Shown here piece after piece: positions 16,525 to 22,447 of a stretch of 64,000 nt of DNA. Where the stretch lies: NCBI GenBank assembly GCA_023131975.1, contig JAGLYV010000066.1, positions 1 through 64,000 of the forward strand. The letters are read 5' to 3'. A program made the position numbers and the translations under genes. This DNA comes from Candidatus Krumholzibacteriia bacterium. GTDB taxonomy: Bacteria > Krumholzibacteriota > Krumholzibacteriia > Krumholzibacteriales > Krumholzibacteriaceae. The notes under the pieces are model-generated. The model ran no database searches and was not told the DNA's origin. It saw nothing but the letters and a program-made list of their open reading frames with translations. Position 1 is the stretch's first letter, and every line of letters begins with the position of its first letter.

Positions 16525-16745
16525 TATGACAGGTGCCAGGCCGATCGGATCAGCGGGCGGGTACAGGCCAGCAGGTGGCCTGTCCGATATTCTTGCCTTG
16601 TAAACCTCCATGTAAATGACGATAATCTGTTATCTCAGGGTCGACGTGCCCGAAACTTGCATCGAGTCCCTTTCGGTCAGAAAGGATCGGATTGACTGGA
16701 GATAACAGCAGCGCTGGGAAAAACAGAAATGATGAAAGTTCAGGT

Positions 16746-17880
16746 ATGGACAAGAGGATCCGCGTCTGCGTGATGATGCCGAAATTCCACATCGGCGGCG
16801 CCGAGGTGCAGGTGATGGGTCTTCTCAGGAATATCGACAGGTCCAGATTTGCCGTTCATCTCTGCCTCTTCGGCCACGGAGTCAGTGAAATGGAAGAGGA
16901 AGCATCCAGCCTGGTAGAAGAGATATATTACCTTGATTTCAGGTGGAGATACCTGCCTGTCAGTTTCCTGAAGCTTGTAAAATATCTGCAGGACGGCAGA
17001 TTCGATGTGCTTCACGCCCACCTTGCCTTTGCCGACCTGATAGGAAGGATCGTGGCCTGGATGGCTGGAGTGCCGATCAGGATAACGACCGAGCATGGCA
17101 AGGGACTGTGGAAATCCGGATTCCAGGTGATGATCGAGCAGGCGATGAACAGGATCACCGACATGCGGATCTGCGTCAGCCGGGATATATTGAGGATCAG
17201 GAAAGAGCGTGAACATACGGACGGTTCGAAGCTGGCCTATATTCCGAACGCGGTGGATACATCTTCCTTTGGTGGGGCCCGCAGGAGTAAAGCAGATATC
17301 ATGAAGGAGTTCGGGTGGGATCCCGCCGCTCCTCTCGTACTCTCGGTAGGGAGAGTGGTAGAGGCCAAGAACTATCCTCTGCTGGTCCGGGCAGTCTCGG
17401 ATCTATCCAGAAAAATACCTGAAGTAAAATGCCTGATCGCCGGTGACGGAAGATGTCGCGGCGAGGTAGAGACAGCAATAACAGAGGACGGACTCGAAAA
17501 TACGGTCCGACTGGCCGGATCGAGAAACGACATCGCCGACCTGCTTGGGGCGGCCGATCTTTTTGTATTATCCTCCGACCGGGAGGGATTGCCGGTGACT
17601 CTTCTTGAGGCGATGGCTTCAGAGACACCGATAGTCTCGACCGACGTAGGAGGCATCTCCGAGGCGGTCAGCGACCGCGAGAGCGCGTTGCTGGTTCCGG
17701 GCCGGGGATATCAGCGCGTTGGCCGCAGCGATGGAAGATGTGCTTTCCGATCCCGATCTGGCTGCCCGGTTGACGGAAAAGGCACGCGAAATCGTAAAGG
17801 ACAGGTTCAGCATCCTGTCGACTTCGATGGAAGTCCAGGATATATACGAAAAACTGTACAGGGAGAAGCGGCAGATATGA
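16746..17880 (+). pseudogene. GT4 (group 1) glycosyltransferase with an apparent single-base frameshift near 17700-17715. The C-terminal 57 codons are in another frame; this may be an assembly error.
   Basis: Frame A reads a GT4 N-terminal domain (MDKRIRVCVMMPKFHIGGAEVQV...) and catalytic domain (EGLPVTLLEAMASETPIVSTDVGGISE...ALLVPGRG). The conserved continuation DISALAAAMEDVLSDPDLAARLTEKAREIVKDRFS...YREKRQI-stop is found in the +1 frame, ending at TGA 17878-17880. The shift falls in the run ccgggccgggg. The track ORF 16692-19085 reads through into the next gene. Confidence 0.55.
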
Positions 17881-19085
17881 CCAAGCCTGAAGCAGTCCCG
17901 GTCGTCATGTATCACGGAGTCGCGCCGGACAGGCCCGAATGGATCTGGAATCATCTTGTCACGCCTGTCGATGTGTTCGATGGGCAGATGAAAGCTCTGA
18001 AAGAAAACGGCTGGAACACGATCACGCTCAAACAGCTCTATTCACATATGAAAGATGGCGACCCACTGCCCAAAAAACCGGTCGTATTGACATTCGACGA
18101 CGGCTACCTGGACAACTGGGTATATGCATATCCTATCCTGAAGAAATATGGTCATCATGCCGTGATCTGGATGACTACCGATTTTATTGATCCATGCCCT
18201 GATCCCCGTCCCAGGATGGACGATGCCGGTATAGATGGTAGTCATGAAAAGGGCCTGGAGAGTCTGGGTTTTCTCTCGTTTGCCGAGATGAGGGTGATGG
18301 AGGAATCGGGCCATGCCGAGATCCAGAGCCATGCCTTGACACATACATGGTATTTCTCGGGAGAGAAGATACTCGATTATCACAGACCTGCCGGAAAAGA
18401 TGGATATGATCCGCTTCCCTGGCTTTCATGGAACGCGGTACCTGAGAAAAAATACGAGTATATGTCGAGAGATCTCAGCGGAGACCTGCCCTTCGGTTCT
18501 CCTGTATACAAGCACGAAAGAGCGTTGGTGGTGAGAAAGTATTTCGACGATGAAAATCTGGCGAGACGCCTTGCCGCGCATGTAGCCGCGCATGGAGGTG
18601 CCGGCTTTTTCGACATGCCCGTATGGAGGGGCGAGCTGGATGAACTGGTGACGAATTACGGATCTCCGGCAGGCAGGTACGAGACCGATGAGGAATATGA
18701 GGACAGGGTAAGACATGAACTTGCCGGATCCCGCAGTATCCTTTCCCGTGGACTCGGCCGTGATATAGATTTTCTCTGCTGGCCTGGAGGAGGGTTCAAC
18801 GATACGACCTTGAGGATCGCCTCGGAAGAGGGTTGCCTGGCTACCACCACAGACTATCATACGCCGGGAAGGAAGAATGTCCACGGAGAAAGGCCCGACA
18901 GGATAAACCGAATAGGATGCGCTTCGCCATGGATGTGGAGGGGTAATGTATCTATCAAAAATACCGACCCCGGTTTTTTCATCGCCTCGCTGGACGGATT
19001 CACGGGAAAAAAAAGGTCGATTTGGAAAATGCGCTGTTATAAGATTAAATACCTGATCAGATATTTTTTGACTGGAAACAAATAA
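17877..19085 (+). CDS. Polysaccharide deacetylase (CE4/NodB homology domain).
   Basis: ATG 17877 overlaps the GT4 stop (ATGA). NodB motifs TFDDGY, HAVIWMTTDF, SHALTH. About 400 aa, typical of CE4 proteins with extra domains. Confidence 0.75.
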   Translation: MTKPEAVPVVMYHGVAPDRPEWIWNHLVTPVDVFDGQMKALKENGWNTITLKQLYSHMKDGDPLPKKPVVLTFDDGYLDNWVYAYPILKKYGHHAVIWMTTDFIDPCPDPRPRMDDAGIDGSHEKGLESLGFLSFAEMRVMEESGHAEIQSHALTHTWYFSGEKILDYHRPAGKDGYDPLPWLSWNAVPEKKYEYMSRDLSGDLPFGSPVYKHERALVVRKYFDDENLARRLAAHVAAHGGAGFFDMPVWRGELDELVTNYGSPAGRYETDEEYEDRVRHELAGSRSILSRGLGRDIDFLCWPGGGFNDTTLRIASEEGCLATTTDYHTPGRKNVHGERPDRINRIGCASPWMWRGNVSIKNTDPGFFIASLDGFTGKKRSIWKMRCYKIKYLIRYFLTGNK

Positions 19086-19102: not shown

Positions 19103-20824
19103 ATGGTATTGCCGCTTTCACCATCACTGGTAAGAAATGTCATACATCCCGTATACAGGGGGCTCAGAGGCGACAAGCTGCTCACGACCCTCAGCGAGCT
19201 TGAAAAGAACCAGTGGCTTTCGCCTGAGGAGATCGAGGATATCCAGTGGGGGCGCATGAAAGGTTTTCTCAAGGAGATATCGACGCACGTTCCATATTAC
19301 CGTGAGCTTTTCAATGAACTGGGCCTGAAGGCGGAAGACATCCAGAAGCCGACGGATTTCCTGGAGCTTCCCCTGCTGGACAAGCACTTGATCAGGCAGG
19401 AAGCGAAGAGGTTGATCACCGAGGATCCGATGAGACGGGGATACAGGTCAAGTACCGGAGGATCTACCGGCGAGCCCCTTTATTTTTCTGTCGATCTGTC
19501 CGCGGGGCCCGTCCGGAGGGCCAACACGGCGCGTAGTTACCGGATGGCAGGGATCGATATCGGCGACAAACAGGCTTTCGTCTGGGGTTTTCCCTTTGAC
19601 ATTCCCCTGAAGGAAAGAATGGCCAGCGCGATAAAGAACTATTTCAACAACATCACATATCTTTCATCCTTCAATATGTCCGAAAACGCGATGCTCGATT
19701 ATGCCAACAAGTTGAAAAGGTACAAGCCCGACCTCGTCATAGGCTATCCCTCCGCGGTGACGCTGTTCGCGGAATTCATCAAGAGCAAGAATATAAGCGG
19801 TATCAAGCCAAAGTCGGTAATCTCCAGTGGTGAGAAGATCTATCCCCAGCAGAGGGAGTTGCTCGAGGAAGTCTTCGGGTGCAGGGTGTTCGACCGCTAT
19901 GGAAGCAACGAGTTTGCAAATGTCGCCCATGAATGTGACCAGCACAAGGGGCTGCATCTCTTCACCGATCTACTCTATTTTGAGATCTTGCGTGAGAACG
20001 GCAGGCCTGCCGCGCCGGGCGAAGTCGGAGAGATCGTGATCACCGATTTTCTGAATCTCTACATGCCATTCGTTCGTTACAGAACGGGAGATATGGCGAT
20101 TCCCACGGACAGAGTCTGTGAATGTGGCCGTGGGCTTCCTCTCATAGAGAGGATCGAGGGGCGGACTTTTGACAATATCCTCACACCTGACGGGCGTTCG
20201 ATCGGCGGGTATTTCTGGACCTATCTCTCCAGGGTCGTTCCAGGTATAAAGCAGTTCCAGGTCGAACAGAAACAGAGAAGCAACATCACTTTCCGGATAG
20301 TCCGCGGCCCCGACTGGAACGATGGAAATGAAGCCCGGCTCATCAGCGAGATCCGCGAGAACATGGGCGAGGCTGTCAATATCAAGATCGACAAGGTGGA
20401 TGAGATTCCTCTGTCGCCGGCCGGAAAGTTCAGGTTCATCGTTTCGAAGGTGGAGGAACGGATGGTCGTCAAATCGAAGGTGCACAAGGCCAATGTGACG
20501 GCAGCCGATCCTTCCAGGGTCGATTGTATAATCGTGGACGAGGATATCCTGGAGCTGAGTAACATCATCCCCGGCGAGCATGTCCTGATCGTGGACAATA
20601 CGAACGGCGCGAGGATCGAGACGTTCGTCATCAAGGGAGAGAAGGGCAGCGGAGAACTCATCTCCTGTGGCGCGGTCGCGCAGCATATCCACGATGGCGA
20701 TGAGATCATTATCATGGCCTTTACCTGGTCCGAGGAGACTCACGGACAGTTCAGCAATATTCTGATAGATGAGAATAACAAGTTCGTCCGCTATCTTACC
20801 GAGAAGGCGGGAGACAAGATATGA
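19103..20824 (+). CDS. CapK/PaaK/F390-synthetase-like adenylate-forming enzyme fused to a C-terminal PanD-like (aspartate decarboxylase fold) domain that appears catalytically degenerate.
   Basis: Residues 1-450 have CapK/PaaK features (NQWLSPEEIEDIQWGRMK, SSTGGSTGEP AMP-binding motif, YGSNE, RYRTGD). Residues 454-573 (nt 20462-20824) align to PanD (KSKVHKANVT..D..IVDEDILE...NGARIETFVIKGEKGSGE..CGAVAQHIHDGDEIIIMAF) but lack the Gly-Ser self-cleavage site (RVDCII instead of GSITI) and carry Phe in place of the catalytic Tyr (ETFVI versus ETYVI). Confidence 0.75.
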   Translation: MVLPLSPSLVRNVIHPVYRGLRGDKLLTTLSELEKNQWLSPEEIEDIQWGRMKGFLKEISTHVPYYRELFNELGLKAEDIQKPTDFLELPLLDKHLIRQEAKRLITEDPMRRGYRSSTGGSTGEPLYFSVDLSAGPVRRANTARSYRMAGIDIGDKQAFVWGFPFDIPLKERMASAIKNYFNNITYLSSFNMSENAMLDYANKLKRYKPDLVIGYPSAVTLFAEFIKSKNISGIKPKSVISSGEKIYPQQRELLEEVFGCRVFDRYGSNEFANVAHECDQHKGLHLFTDLLYFEILRENGRPAAPGEVGEIVITDFLNLYMPFVRYRTGDMAIPTDRVCECGRGLPLIERIEGRTFDNILTPDGRSIGGYFWTYLSRVVPGIKQFQVEQKQRSNITFRIVRGPDWNDGNEARLISEIRENMGEAVNIKIDKVDEIPLSPAGKFRFIVSKVEERMVVKSKVHKANVTAADPSRVDCIIVDEDILELSNIIPGEHVLIVDNTNGARIETFVIKGEKGSGELISCGAVAQHIHDGDEIIIMAFTWSEETHGQFSNILIDENNKFVRYLTEKAGDKI

Positions 20825-20914
20825 TGTTAGGGTATGGTAATACAGCCCGGTTTATGATATAATGTCCACCTATGGCACAGGGTAATGTTGCCACACGCAT
20901 CAGGAGGAGAGGGA

Positions 20915-21280
20915 ATGAAACGTCTGCTGCTTAAATCGATGATCCTCAAGGCAAGAATCACCCAGGCTGATCTTCGGTATGTCGGAAGCATAACGATAGA
21001 CGAGGACCTTATCGACCGCGCAAATCTCAGTGAGCATGAGAACGTCCATGTCATCGACAGGACCAATGGAAAAAGGCTTGAGACATATGTGATAAAGGGA
21101 GATCGGGGCAGTGGAGTGATCTGCATGAACGGGGCTGCCGCCCACCTGATCAACAAGGACGATGAAGTGGATATCATGGCCTTTTCCTGGTCTACCGGCG
21201 AGGCAGACCCGGTCTTTATCGAAGTTGACGGCGACAATCATTATACAAAAGTCGTGCGAATGGACGAATTCAGGGGTTAG
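20915..21280 (+). CDS. panD: Aspartate 1-decarboxylase (PanD), canonical pyruvoyl-dependent type.
   Basis: MKRLLLKSMILKARITQADLRYVGSITIDEDL with Gly24-Ser25 cleavage site, KRLETYVI (Arg54/Tyr58 equivalents), GAAAHL. Strong SD AGGAGGAGAGGGA before ATG 20915. The track ORF starts upstream at 20885. Confidence 0.8.
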   Translation: MKRLLLKSMILKARITQADLRYVGSITIDEDLIDRANLSEHENVHVIDRTNGKRLETYVIKGDRGSGVICMNGAAAHLINKDDEVDIMAFSWSTGEADPVFIEVDGDNHYTKVVRMDEFRG

Positions 21281-21319
21281 AGCTGATATGGGGGCTGATC
21301 GATGCGGGGCGGATTCCAG

Positions 21320-22447
21320 ATGTTCAACAGGGGATTCCACCTGTTCGATCTCTATGGCATCCCCGTTGAACTGAACATCAGCTGGGTCTTTATTCTGGCA
21401 CTTGTTACCTGGTCTTTTGCTACCGGTTATATCCCCGATACTTATGGAGATTCCTTTGGCGTGGCCACAACATGGCTGCTGGCCTTCAGTGTGGCGATAC
21501 TCCTTTTTCTGTCGATCCTGTTTCACGAGTTGAGTCACTCGATTGTGGCGGTCCGTAACGGTCTCCCCATAAAAAGGATCACTCTTTTCATGTTCGGCGG
21601 TGTCGCCCAGATGAGCCGGGAAGTAGATTCCGCCGGGCTCGAATTCCGGATGGCCGCGGCCGGGCCGCTTTTCACTCTGGTCCTGGCCCTGACGCTTTAT
21701 GGATCAGCTTATCTGTTGAGTGGGTGGCTTTTCGGCCAGGCCCTTCTTCGAATGCTCGCTAACATCAATCTCGGCGTCTTTTTTTTCAACATGATTCCGG
21801 GGTTCCCGCTTGACGGCGGTCGGATACTTCGGGCCGCGATATGGGCGAGGAACAGGAATATCCGGAAGGCGACATTGGTAGCGAGCAATATAGGCAAGGG
21901 GTTCGCCTGGTTGTTGATCATATTCGGAGCCTTCACTTTCCTCGCGTTCGGCGGCTCGATCGGTGGCCTGTGGATGATCTTTATAGGCATGTTTCTGAAA
22001 AAAGCCGCGACGGACAGTTACAGGAATGTAGTGTACAGGGAGGTTCTGGGCGAGATCAGGATATCGGATATCATGCGGGAAGAAGTGATTACCGTGGATG
22101 CCTCGATGGACCTGATGACCCTGGTGGACGAATATTTCCTGAAATACCATTTCGGTGCTTTTCCCGTAGTGGCTGACGGGATCCTGCAGGGAATGGTCTC
22201 CCTGGACGCCGTGAGAAAACGTCCCAGGGAAGAATGGCAAAGATTGACAGTCTCGGATGTAATGGGACGTGACGCCATGTCATGTGTCGTATTCGAAAAT
22301 GAACATGCCGACCGTCTTTTTTTTCTGATAATACAGAAGGGATACAGTCTGGTGCCTGTGGCCAGAGTGGACGGCAGGATCATCGGTATGGTGACCCGGC
22401 GTGATTTCTCCGATGCCGTCAAGGTAATGACATCACTTCTCAAGTAG
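21320..22447 (+). CDS. M50-family site-2 protease (zinc metalloprotease) with tandem CBS domains.
   Basis: HELSH zinc-binding motif, FNMIPGFPLDGGRIL (LDG motif), multiple TM helices, then two CBS-like segments (ISDIMREEVITVD..., VSDVMGRDAMSC...). Confidence 0.8.
   Translation: MFNRGFHLFDLYGIPVELNISWVFILALVTWSFATGYIPDTYGDSFGVATTWLLAFSVAILLFLSILFHELSHSIVAVRNGLPIKRITLFMFGGVAQMSREVDSAGLEFRMAAAGPLFTLVLALTLYGSAYLLSGWLFGQALLRMLANINLGVFFFNMIPGFPLDGGRILRAAIWARNRNIRKATLVASNIGKGFAWLLIIFGAFTFLAFGGSIGGLWMIFIGMFLKKAATDSYRNVVYREVLGEIRISDIMREEVITVDASMDLMTLVDEYFLKYHFGAFPVVADGILQGMVSLDAVRKRPREEWQRLTVSDVMGRDAMSCVVFENEHADRLFFLIIQKGYSLVPVARVDGRIIGMVTRRDFSDAVKVMTSLLK

Follow-up and report, generated by a model that had tools for sequence, protein, structure and literature searches.

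The 64,000-nucleotide stretch of DNA analyzed here (the window) encodes two PanD-type polypeptides, a degenerate domain fused to the C terminus of an adenylate-forming ligase and a free protein encoded just downstream, which we propose assemble obligately into a mixed PanD ring whose active sites are split between the two and whose β-alanine would be used by the ligase tethered to it. On the residue patterns, gene linkage, and conservation described below, we regard this proposal as evenly poised between right and wrong. A fuller version is put forward tentatively, its chances falling somewhat short of even. In it, a pyruvoyl enzyme would have been split between paralogs by reciprocal degeneration, β-alanine would be made on a ligase-bearing ring, the dead interfaces would have been repurposed as holding sites for β-alanine, and the product in Krumholzibacteriota, Latescibacterota, and Nitrospirota would be an N-β-alanyl amino sugar, a glycan or glycoside modification not described before. 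The features concerned are listed in Table 1.

Table 1. Features of the fusion locus, with positions in the window
Feature	Positions	Strand	Basis and remarks
GT4 glycosyltransferase, frameshifted near 17700 in this assembly	16692..17880	+	Pfam; stop overlaps deacetylase start (ATGA)
Cytoplasmic NodB/PgaB-type (PF01522) deacetylase, ends 17 nt before the fusion gene	17877..19085	+	Pfam Polysacc_deac_1, E = 9e-18
Fusion gene, 573 aa: PaaK/CapK-type adenylate-forming ligase plus C-terminal PanD-fold pseudo-subunit	19103..20824	+	ORF, profile, and structure comparison
Complete ANL enzyme, aa 1-452	19103..20458	+	N-terminal domain aa 1 to ∼344, C-terminal subdomain aa ∼345-452
PanD-fold domain, aa 453-573	20459..20824	+	Keeps K459, H461, R504, and T507; lacks cleavage site, Tyr58, and Asn72
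Shine-Dalgarno-like AGGAGG, 7 nt 5' of the free PanD start	20902..20907	+	Read from the sequence
Free PanD, 121 aa	20915..21280	+	ATG at 20915, 90 nt past the fusion stop; PF02261, TIGR00223

Architecture of the fusion protein

That a single open reading frame encodes a ligase with a PanD-like C terminus, as the first-pass annotation of this DNA had stated, was confirmed by the ORF itself and by Pfam, Foldseek, and phmmer searches of the PDB. The protein is 100% identical to a database entry (P0001) that NCBI names "aspartate 1-decarboxylase" from Candidatus Krumholzibacteria, its AlphaFold confidence is high, and the 573-aa architecture is shared by more than 100 homolog clusters from many samples and at least four phyla. 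Across these clusters the database names are either "aspartate 1-decarboxylase" or "phenylacetate-CoA ligase," neither of which fits the fusion protein.

The same annotation had assigned the first ∼450 residues to a CapK/PaaK-type ANL enzyme, and this assignment is borne out. The best Foldseek matches of the ligase part are PaaK2 (2y4o), BT_0428, and PaaK1 (E ∼ 1e-26), each over ∼440 columns, which is their whole length. The two-domain fold, a phosphate-binding P-loop (T118-E124, positions 19454-19474), and the A10 lysine (K442, positions 20426-20428) are all present, the latter two being conserved in the ligase family, and these features place the protein in the PaaK/CapK branch of the ANL superfamily. 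With its P-loop and A10 lysine, the ligase looks competent. It has the full-length fold, P-loop, and A10 lysine of the known PaaK-family ANL enzymes (PaaK1/2, 2y27/2y4o; BT_0428, 4r1l; NatL2, 6siw; ClxA, 9s3l; Pfam CapK_C, PF27533), but identity to them is just ∼20-24%, and a PanD-fold domain is known from none of them. The direct products of some of these enzymes are amides or esters, not CoA thioesters; the structural neighbors of the window ligase include NatL2, ClxA, EhpF, and GH3, which we take to be PaaK-family members that form amides or esters in this way, without CoA.

Every curated equivalog cutoff that was applied to the ligase is missed by a wide score difference (PaaK, 87 versus 646; F390 synthetase, 64 versus 459; DVU_1553, 151 versus 300; FlxY, 127 versus 520), and by these scores it belongs to none of the named subfamilies. 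The Pfam AMP-binding score is 23.8, below the gathering score of 29.9. Four invariant residues of the ligase part, Cys278, His285, Cys339, and Cys341, may form a metal site.

The possibility, raised together with the first-pass annotation, that the C-terminal extension is an ordinary ANL C-terminal subdomain carried by CapK homologs generally was rejected, because the whole of the ANL part precedes residue 453 and unfused homologs end there: distant CapK-like homologs and two close ones (L103 and L118) stop directly after the GK-x-RF motif and lack a PanD domain.

The fused domain lacks the cleavage site and keeps Lys9, His11, and Arg54

PanD, which is a drug target, is known from textbooks as a homotetramer that processes itself; in the ordinary enzyme, four identical subunits form a ring, and each active site lies between two neighbors. 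One subunit contacts substrate analogs through Pyr25, Thr57, and Tyr58 and its neighbor does so through Lys9* and Arg54*, with an ion pair between Lys9* and the α-carboxylate; strict conservation in ADCs has been reported for Lys9, His11, and Ile86 (PMC3314653). The adjacent subunit provides Arg54*, and the R54A variant is inactive (PMC6969166); the active site is treated further in PMC7770189 and PMC4410942. A study of PanD conservation (PMC4537548) contains no per-residue data on Lys9, and no mutational data that make Lys9 indispensable were found in the literature searched.

The C-terminal ∼120 residues of the fusion protein had been said to align with aspartate 1-decarboxylase, and profile and structure comparisons agree. 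Pfam Asp_decarbox (PF02261) matches residues 453-560 with E = 1.7e-26 (92.8 bits; gathering score, 25), phmmer against the PDB finds Mtb PanD (2c45, E = 7e-19), and the domain has the double-psi β-barrel PanD fold. Alignment with E. coli and Mtb PanD likewise upheld the claim that the Gly24-Ser25 site is absent and that Phe replaces Tyr58: R-V-D474-C475 (D474-C475 at positions 20522-20527) stands at Y-x-G24-S25, F508 (position 20624) at Tyr58, and C522 at Asn72. Kept are K459 (Lys9, position 20477), H461 (His11, position 20483), R504 (Arg54, position 20612), and T507 (Thr57). No PanD-like pseudo-domain was found described in the literature searched, which is not proof that none has ever been described.

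This pattern is a property of the family. Lys9, His11, Arg54, and Gly73 are each present in 113 of 113 fused domains, and Thr57, Gly73, and Ala74 are largely kept. Position 24 is Asp in 110 and Glu in 3, position 25 is Cys in 77, Gly in 20, and Ser in 16, Tyr58 has become Phe in 99 of the 113, and Asn72 is lost, with Cys, Ser, Gly, or Thr in its place. The same residues recur in 45 independent loci, where Lys9, His11, and Arg54 are found in 45/45. As Gly24-Ser25 is absent, the fused domain cannot form a pyruvoyl group, and the Gly at position 25 in 20 of the domains rules out processing as a family trait.

The domain is conserved as strongly as the enzyme to which it is joined. Mean pairwise identity is 0.60 for the fused domain, and the two domains of the ligase have values of 0.56 and 0.61; 26 positions of the domain are at least 95% conserved, and the β1 strand, K-S-K-I-H-x-A, is at least 95% conserved throughout. 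This level of conservation indicates purifying selection on the pseudo-domain and argues that it is not a relic.

The free PanD lacks Lys9, His11, and Ile86

The first-pass annotation had noted a real PanD downstream of the fusion. A PanD gene is indeed there, matching PF02261 with E = 2e-37 (128 bits) and scoring 116.3 bits against the TIGR00223 cutoff of 106, but its product is not a complete PanD. Tyr22, Gly24-Ser25 (positions 20984-20989), Arg54, Thr57, Tyr58 (position 21086), and Asn72 are intact; Met stands at Lys9 (position 20939), Leu at His11 (position 20945), and Asp at Ile86 (position 21170). The protein thus has the equivalog score and the Gly24-Ser25, Thr57, Tyr58, and Asn72 of a PanD and lacks Lys9, His11, and Ile86.

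These substitutions recur among the relatives of the free protein. Lys9 is found in 0 of 37 locus partners and 0 of the 119 nearest clusters (0/156), with Met, Ala, Val, Ile, or Leu instead; His11 is found in 3 of 37 locus partners and in none of the 119 clusters, and Asp86 is found in all 119. Tyr22, Gly24, Ser25, Arg54, Thr57, Tyr58, and Asn72 are each kept in at least 118 of these clusters, Arg54 in 119/119. When all PanD relatives are represented at 50% identity, the canonical signature is complete in 140 of the best 150 representatives, and the only two full-length entries without Lys9 are both of the cassette type. Loss of Lys9 therefore appears specific to the cassette clade and almost unique among PanDs. 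In a scan of genome contigs that used the full-length family alignment, the pattern KSKIH[KR]A drew in overwhelming numbers of ordinary PanD genes; L006 was the only true fusion in that scan, and the loci chosen by the pattern were left out as a control for Lys9 conservation.

Thus, no single polypeptide of the window is a complete PanD: the fused copy is without Gly24-Ser25, Tyr58, and Asn72, the free copy is without Lys9, His11, and Ile86, and together they carry the full strictly conserved set. Known PanDs (PF02261/TIGR00223; E. coli, 1aw8; M. tuberculosis, 2c45) differ in being homotetramers of one complete subunit, with active sites between neighbors, and in the window one of the two copies is in addition covalently joined to a ligase.

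The two genes are linked and often adjoin glycan genes

A PanD without Lys9 lies within 2 kb downstream in 37 of the 41 fusion loci that have room downstream (within 310 bp in 36), so that the dead paralog is inherited together with an incomplete partner, and the reciprocal retention of residues holds in all of the paired loci. The four fusion loci without an adjacent free PanD are L090, L102, L110, and L117, and no PanD lies near L103 or L118, whose ligases lack the fused domain. The pair is found in Krumholzibacteriota, Latescibacterota, Eisenbacteria, and Nitrospirota; in Nitrospirota the fusion stop and the PanD start overlap. In the window the two genes are in the same reading frame, with three stop codons intervening. 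Complete genomes, CP070727.1 among them, also carry the cassette.

A deacetylase gene is directly upstream of the fusion, often with a GT4 gene before it, in 13 of the 18 loci with enough upstream sequence, and a deacetylase gene has this position in L001, L002, and L004 as well. In the other 5 of the 18 it is absent beside the pair, and the neighbors look like housekeeping genes. The deacetylase is a frequent but not obligatory member of the cassette. Its best NCBIfam match in the window is the PgaB N-deacetylase domain, below the cutoff, and the window GT4 protein, whose frame changes between residues 321 and 323 (tblastn), matches stp2, EpsE, BshA, and MshA, all below cutoff. The Nitrospirota cassette is situated inside a Wzz/Wzy/Wzx polysaccharide locus. 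GT4 genes also adjoin unfused and distant CapK-like relatives. An M50/CBS protease downstream, syntenic in Krumholzibacteriota and Latescibacterota and absent in Nitrospirota, was left out as a part of the system. No UDP-sugar dehydrogenase, panB, or panE gene belongs to the conserved cassette in the loci compared.

A proposed mixed ring and a use for its β-alanine

From the reciprocal residue patterns we infer a hetero-oligomer in which the free PanD would supply the pyruvoyl side of each working site (the pyruvoyl derived from Gly24-Ser25, Thr57, and Tyr58) and the ligase-fused domain would supply Lys9, His11, and Arg54, with Lys9 and Arg54 holding the two carboxylates of aspartate. The simplest such assembly would be an alternating A2B2 ring with two complete and two dead sites. 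As sites would be complete only in the mixed ring, aspartate would be decarboxylated only on the ligase-bearing complex.

Some of the conservation goes beyond what a simple split site needs. Such a site has no need of Arg54 in the free PanD, yet it is kept in every one of the nearest clusters, and no need of Thr57, Gly73, and Ala74 in the fused domain, yet these are largely kept. Retention of these residues is a hint that the "dead" interfaces themselves serve a purpose. To each of them the fused domain would contribute Asp24, Thr57, and Gly73-Ala74, and the free PanD would contribute Arg54, Met9, and Leu11; if repurposed, these interfaces may hold β-alanine and pass the product to the adenylation pocket.

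The use of the β-alanine forms a second and weaker layer of the proposal, in which the attached PaaK/CapK-type ligase would consume it. Most likely the ligase would adenylate β-alanine and pass it on to the amine of a hexosamine residue that had been installed by the GT4 enzyme and de-N-acetylated by the NodB/PgaB-type deacetylase. The outcome would be an exchange of N-acetyl for N-β-alanyl on a glycan or glycoside. No report of a β-alanylated polysaccharide or glycan was found in the literature searched, which is not proof that none exists, and that literature held nothing relevant on CapK biochemistry or on pantothenate metabolism in Krumholzibacteriota. Decarboxylation by the free PanD of an aspartyl adduct made by the ligase was also considered and is unlikely, because Arg54, which binds the free β-carboxylate, is invariant in both copies.

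Alternative explanations

The two proteins might not mix at all. The fused domain would then form a homotetramer of its own that tetramerizes the ligase and provides a noncatalytic pocket (Lys9*, His11*, Arg54*, and Thr57) for substrate capture or allosteric control by aspartate, β-alanine, or another dicarboxylate, and the free PanD would be a self-sufficient homotetramer that works without Lys9. Several observations fit: with Lys9, Arg54, Thr57, and the Gly73-Ala74 backbone region kept, the homotetramer pocket would be complete but for the cofactor and proton donor, an unprocessed mutant of the E. coli enzyme binds malonate between Lys9 and Arg54 so that no pyruvoyl is needed for binding (PMC3975893), and Arg54 is kept in the free PanD. 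Decarboxylation could even be favored by a hydrophobic side chain close to the leaving carboxylate, so that homotetramers of the free PanD might be active. We nevertheless consider an arrangement without mixing unlikely: it leaves unexplained the loss of Lys9, His11, and Ile86 from the free PanD, which is almost unique among PanDs, as well as the tie between that loss and the retention of the same residues in the fused copy, and it calls for two unusual events, independent of each other, where one would otherwise do. The pocket it describes is essentially the aspartate or β-alanine binding or recruitment module suggested in the first-pass annotation.

The ring might be mixed as proposed and the ligase might work in the reverse sense, adenylating another acid and using the amino group of β-alanine as the nucleophile. 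The CapK family takes its name from the S. aureus type 1 capsule locus. One candidate acid is a uronic acid of a glycan, converted to its β-alanine amide, by analogy to the capsule of that type, in which taurine, the sulfonate isostere of β-alanine, is amide-linked to GalNAcA (PMC12043029). Another is pantoate, which would make the ligase a nonorthologous pantothenate synthetase in place of PanC. GH3 enzymes, which are among the structural neighbors of the ligase, and other ANL amido-synthetases work in this sense, PanC-PanD fusions exist, and the several loci with housekeeping-type neighbors and without the deacetylase fit a core metabolic role. The conserved cassette, however, offers neither the UDP-sugar dehydrogenase that would go with a uronic acid nor the panB and panE that would go with pantoate, the deacetylase of the 13 loci has no role with either acid, and the position of the Nitrospirota pair inside a polysaccharide locus stands against pantoate. 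A reversed ligase is, in our judgment, distinctly unlikely.

The first-pass annotation had offered a further role for the dead domain, that of a partner of the downstream PanD in the manner of PanZ (PanM), triggering or controlling self-cleavage at Gly24-Ser25, or inhibiting the enzyme, without contributing catalytic residues. The partnership part of this suggestion fits the tight co-occurrence of the two genes (37/41). Processing of some PanDs does require a protein partner (PMC3473359, PMC4410942), and, since the cleaved loops lie at protomer interfaces (PMC4410942), a neighboring pseudo-subunit would touch them. PanZ resembles the fused domain in that it is a second genome-encoded protein that binds PanD protomer interfaces and controls activity; but it is an unrelated GNAT-fold protein that binds on the outside of the tetramer (PMC4410942), depends on acetyl-CoA, is restricted to some Gammaproteobacteria, and gives no substrate-binding residues, whereas the fused domain is itself a PanD paralog, with no similarity to PanZ and no GNAT match in Pfam or NCBIfam. 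A purely regulatory role also leaves the invariance of Lys9 and Arg54 and the loss of Lys9 from the partner unaccounted for. As the fused domain keeps Lys9, His11, and Arg54 and the free PanD is without Lys9 and His11, catalytic complementation is likelier than PanZ-like regulation, which we consider highly improbable.

Finally, that the fused domain is without function, whether as the decaying remains of a gene fusion, as a read-through, or as an artifact of assembly, as its missing catalytic residues, the resemblance of some database PanD "fusions" to gene-call read-throughs, and the frameshift two genes upstream in the window might suggest, is effectively refuted by the number of homologs that share the layout across samples and phyla, by the residue invariance and ligase-like conservation of the domain, and by the high AlphaFold confidence.

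Relation to known systems

Returning to the mixed ring, its nearest parallels are in trypanosomatids, where S-adenosylmethionine decarboxylase with its "prozyme" and the deoxyhypusine synthase heterotetramer each need a dead paralog in a hetero-oligomer; the former enzyme is pyruvoyl-dependent, and in the latter the active-site residues are split between paralogs across the interface. We know of no cases of reciprocal loss across an interface other than these polyamine and hypusine enzymes of trypanosomes. They differ from the window proteins in belonging to eukaryotic parasites, in having unrelated folds, and in that the dead paralog is free rather than a domain of a downstream enzyme, and those complexes are experimentally established whereas the mixed ring of the window is predicted from residue patterns. 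If the proposal is correct, the family would gain its first natural PanD that is obligately heteromeric and whose active site is divided, and this PanD would give a clean bacterial example of subfunctionalization by reciprocal loss across a subunit interface and a case of substrate channeling in which a pseudo-subunit of the producer is tethered to the consumer. The neighboring "aspartate 1-decarboxylase" may then be inactive alone, which would affect pantothenate and CoA metabolic reconstructions of these uncultured phyla, and a β-alanine-containing glycoconjugate would be a possible new product.

The proposed order of glycan reactions, in which GlcNAc is installed, its acetyl group is removed, and the freed amine is acylated, has counterparts. 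In mycothiol and bacillithiol synthesis (MshA/B/C and BshA/B/C) a GT4 enzyme is followed by a deacetylase and then by an ATP-dependent amino-acid ligase, and in Nod factor synthesis deacetylation by NodB, the founding PF01522 deacetylase, is followed by reacylation by NodA. The likeness would be functional only. The window GT4 has weak, below-cutoff similarity to BshA and MshA, but the deacetylases MshB and BshB are of the LmbE type and the ligase MshC resembles tRNA synthetases, unlike the window enzymes, and none of these pathways uses β-alanine or an ANL ligase.

Database fusions also join PanD to the next enzyme of β-alanine or pantothenate metabolism (PanC-PanD and PanD-CoaX; P0161, P0157, P0147, and P0176). 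In these, some of which may be gene-call read-throughs, the PanD part is fully canonical and the partner is a pantothenate-pathway enzyme. As PanC is a β-alanine-consuming ligase joined to a canonical PanD, tethering of PanD to a consumer of its product is a recurring theme.

Organization of the gene cluster

The GT4 glycosyltransferase, deacetylase, fusion and free PanD genes lie in close succession on one strand. The GT4 gene changes frame near position 17700, with aa 6–321 in one frame and aa 323–378 in the next (tblastn), and its true stop codon (17878–17880) overlaps the deacetylase ATG at 17877. The frame change and the overlapping stop and start codons rule out the 797-aa ORF of GT4 plus polysaccharide deacetylase (16692–19085) as a real fusion, and the two are separate genes in the homologous loci L001, L095, and L116. 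The frame break stems either from an indel in the assembly or from pseudogenization of GT4.

Genes in and next to the cluster
Feature	Position (nt)	Strand	Remarks
GT4 glycosyltransferase	16692–17880	+	frameshift near 17700 in this assembly
PF01522 deacetylase	17877–19085	+	ATG overlaps GT4 stop
Fusion gene, 573 aa	19103–20824	+	
Free PanD, 121 aa	20915–21280	+	starts 90 nt after fusion gene; AGGAGG ahead
M50/CBS protease	21302–22447		next after free PanD

A protein identical to the fusion protein, from a Candidatus Krumholzibacteria MAG (P0001), carries the database name aspartate 1-decarboxylase, and relatives are named phenylacetate-CoA ligase by JGI; the present database names for the fusion protein are misleading.

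The fusion protein joins a complete ligase to a PanD-like domain

The first-pass annotation described the fusion protein as an ANL enzyme followed by a catalytically dead domain with the PanD fold, and both parts of this description held. An AlphaFold2 model (mean pLDDT 86.9, pTM 0.72, from an alignment of 110 sequences) matches PaaK2 (2y4o), PaaK1 (2y27), and BT_0428 over ∼440 columns, their full length (Foldseek, E∼1e-26), and by this model aa 1–452 make up an entire adenylate-forming enzyme of the PaaK family. The P-loop (T118–E124) and the A10 lysine (K442) are almost invariant across the family, and, judged by these motifs, the ligase has its catalytic equipment. No named subfamily fits it, as the NCBIfam equivalogs for the DVU_1553 family, FlxY, PaaK, and F390 synthetase all score well under their cutoffs. 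Its structural neighbors include NatL2, ClxA, EhpF, and the GH3 amido-synthetases, enzymes that form amides or esters directly and not CoA thioesters. Four further residues of the ligase part (19934–20125), C278, H285, C339, and C341, are invariant, and their pattern (C-x6-H … C-x-C) looks like a structural metal site. Three homologs of ∼500 aa (P0106, P0109, and P0115) lack aa 367–437, most of the ANL C-terminal subdomain, but retain the PanD-like domain together with the A10 lysine; the gap runs from one to the other of two similar short motifs (TPDGRS and SPAGKF), and these proteins may be genuine deletion variants or assembly artifacts.

The C-terminal region (aa 453–560) matches Pfam Asp_decarbox (92.8 bits, E=1.7e-26) and, by sequence, Mtb PanD 2c45 (E=7e-19). 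There is no linker at the junction: the final strand of the ligase (…GKFRFIVSKVEE) continues directly into PanD strand β1 (RMVVKSKVHK). Since unfused homologs end right after the GK-x-RF motif, an ordinary ANL subdomain can be rejected for this region. The predicted loss of the autoprocessing site and the catalytic tyrosine was also seen, with D474–C475 at the Gly24–Ser25 position and F508 at that of Tyr58, and the fused domain belongs to the PanD family by structure but fails its catalytic definition.

We also rejected the idea that the fused domain is a relic. More than 100 homolog clusters (90% identity), named from Krumholzibacteriota, Latescibacterota, Eisenbacteria, and Nitrospirota MAGs, share the ∼573-aa architecture. 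Among 110 full-length members, mean pairwise identity is 0.60 in the PanD-like domain versus 0.56 and 0.61 in the ligase domains, and 26 positions of the PanD-like domain, including the entire β1 motif K-S-K-I-H-x-A, are at least 95% conserved. The sole true fusion locus recovered from the species-representative genome collection (L006, GTDB genome contig JAQVGR010000109.1) has an apparently truncated or frameshifted fusion gene, a 508-aa stop-to-stop ORF overlapping the free PanD ORF.

The fused domain and free PanD have lost reciprocal residues

Active-site residues were counted in 113 homologs of the fused domain, with the same pattern in 45 non-redundant loci, and in free PanD from the 119 nearest clusters and 37 locus partners.

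Active-site residues (PanD numbering) in the fused domain and free PanD
Residue	Fused domain	Free PanD, clusters	Free PanD, locus partners
Lys9	K 113/113	0/119 (M115/V3/I1)	0/37 (M31/A4/I1/L1)
His11	H 113/113	0/119	3/37
Tyr22	variable	at least 118/119	
Gly24	D110/E3	at least 118/119	
Ser25	C77/G20/S16	at least 118/119	
Arg54	R 113/113	at least 118/119	
Thr57	T 103/113	at least 118/119	
Tyr58	F in 99/113	at least 118/119	
Asn72	C/S/G/T	at least 118/119	
Gly73	G 113/113	at least 118/119	
Ala74		at least 118/119	
Ile86	I in 66/113	D 119/119	

The first-pass annotation took the downstream protein to be the real PanD, but it is incomplete, lacking Lys9, His11, and Ile86; it passes the PanD equivalog threshold and fails the criterion of strictly conserved Lys9, His11, and Ile86. 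The Asp at the Ile86 position (21170–21172) is a third reciprocal difference.

When free PanD was scored against 1.84 billion 50%-identity representatives, 140 of the best 150 had the full canonical signature (K9-H11-Y22-G24-S25-R54-T57-Y58-N72-G73). The only full-length sequences without Lys9 among these 150 were the cassette clade's own two representatives; the other deviants were sequences with an aberrant N terminus, variants at a single site, and one fragment of a fusion. By these comparisons, PanDs in general have not drifted away from Lys9.

Free PanD and the fused domain may form a mixed ring

In PanD, bound substrate analogs are contacted by one subunit through Pyr25, Thr57, and Tyr58 and by its neighbor through Lys9* and Arg54* (asterisks mark the neighboring subunit); Lys9* ion-pairs the α-carboxylate, Arg54* binds the β-carboxylate, and Lys9, His11, and Ile86 are counted among the strictly conserved residues (PMC3314653). 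A second paper also places Arg54* in the neighbor subunit and reports the R54A variant as inactive (PMC6969166). Tyr58 donates the proton, and cofactor formation requires Thr57 (PMC3975893). Set against this literature, the residue pattern shows that free PanD has kept the cofactor side of the site and lost part of the neighbor side. The fused domain is its mirror image, with the neighbor side kept and the cofactor side lost, and the two retained sides together hold all residues of a normal PanD site. All four sites would be without Lys9 in a free-PanD homotetramer and without cofactor in a fused-domain homotetramer.

Gene linkage agrees with a mixed ring. Of the fusion loci, 41 extend 500 bp or more past the fusion gene; a PanD without Lys9 lies within 2 kb in 37 of these (within 310 bp in 36), and an adjacent free PanD is missing in 4. 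The reading frames of the two genes directly adjoin in Nitrospirota. Close ligase homologs without the fused domain (L103 and L118, 60–62% identity in the compared region) have no PanD nearby.

From the reciprocal residues and this linkage, the best explanation is that free PanD and the fused domain form an obligate hetero-oligomer with split sites, a reading of sequence and literature to which we give roughly an even chance. Its simplest form would be an A2B2 ring in which the two proteins alternate, so that two of the four sites are live and the others dead. We found no mutational evidence making Lys9 indispensable, and a non-polar residue beside the leaving carboxylate might be tolerated. 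Arg54 of free PanD and Thr57, Gly73, and Ala74 of the fused domain are retained though the simple ring model does not need them. We speculate that the dead interfaces, which would consist of Asp24, Thr57, and Gly73–Ala74 of the fused domain and Arg54, Met9, and Leu11 of free PanD, still bind a carboxylate; a candidate is β-alanine, which lacks the α-carboxylate that Lys9 would hold and whose amine could pair with the always-acidic residue 24.

The first-pass annotation had suggested that the dead domain might regulate the downstream PanD as PanZ does. The linkage favors a partnership, but its role is likely catalytic, and neither the fused domain nor free PanD resembles PanZ. By analogy, the closest conceptual relatives are enzymes completed by a dead paralog, examples being two of trypanosomatids, the AdoMetDC–prozyme pair and the heterotetramer of deoxyhypusine synthase; unlike the present pair, these are eukaryotic, have folds unrelated to PanD, and do not have the dead paralog fused to the next enzyme. 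The literature searched held no description of the fusion architecture or of a heteromeric PanD, and we assign the pair to the known kinds PanD and ANL ligase, as a variant.

Possible role of the ligase

Of 18 loci with sufficient sequence, 13 have a cytoplasmic NodB/PgaB-type deacetylase (best NCBIfam match the PgaB N-deacetylase domain, below cutoff) immediately 5′ of the fusion gene; the other 5 lack it beside the pair, and their neighbors are housekeeping-type genes. A GT4 gene with weak similarity to stp2, EpsE, BshA, and MshA is often ahead of the deacetylase, and GT4 genes also adjoin unfused and distant CapK-like relatives. The four-gene set of Nitrospirota sits within a Wzz/Wzy/Wzx-type polysaccharide locus.

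This neighborhood points weakly to glycan β-alanylation, the most economical scheme and one that, estimated separately from the ring model, we regard as possible rather than probable. GT4 would install a HexNAc, the deacetylase would free its amine, and the ligase would adenylate β-alanine from its own PanD ring and acylate that amine. The same order of chemistry occurs in NodB followed by NodA and in MshA/B/C. No β-alanylated glycan was found in the literature searched. The orientation may also be reversed, so that the amine of β-alanine attacks either a uronic acid or pantoate in adenylated form; the uronic acid version has a precedent in the taurine amide of the type 1 capsule of S. aureus (PMC12043029), and PanC–PanD fusions in databases show that tethering of PanD to a β-alanine-consuming ligase recurs. 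Canonical PanD is joined to PanC (pantoate-β-alanine ligase), type III pantothenate kinase, or an FAD_binding_2 (NadB-like) region in P0161, P0157, P0147, P0176, P0183, and P0142, some of which may be gene-call read-throughs.

Nearly every locus of Krumholzibacteriota and Latescibacterota has, downstream of free PanD, an M50 metalloprotease carrying a CBS pair, which is absent in Nitrospirota. In four metagenome loci (L101, L107, L110, and L115), a second CapK-like ligase paralog with no PanD domain follows free PanD, as does a second deacetylase in L115. Further conserved synteny in loci of the L001/L004 type includes a Band7/zinc-ribbon protein, an OMP β-barrel, a methyltransferase, kynureninase, an aldo-keto reductase, and an S9 peptidase.
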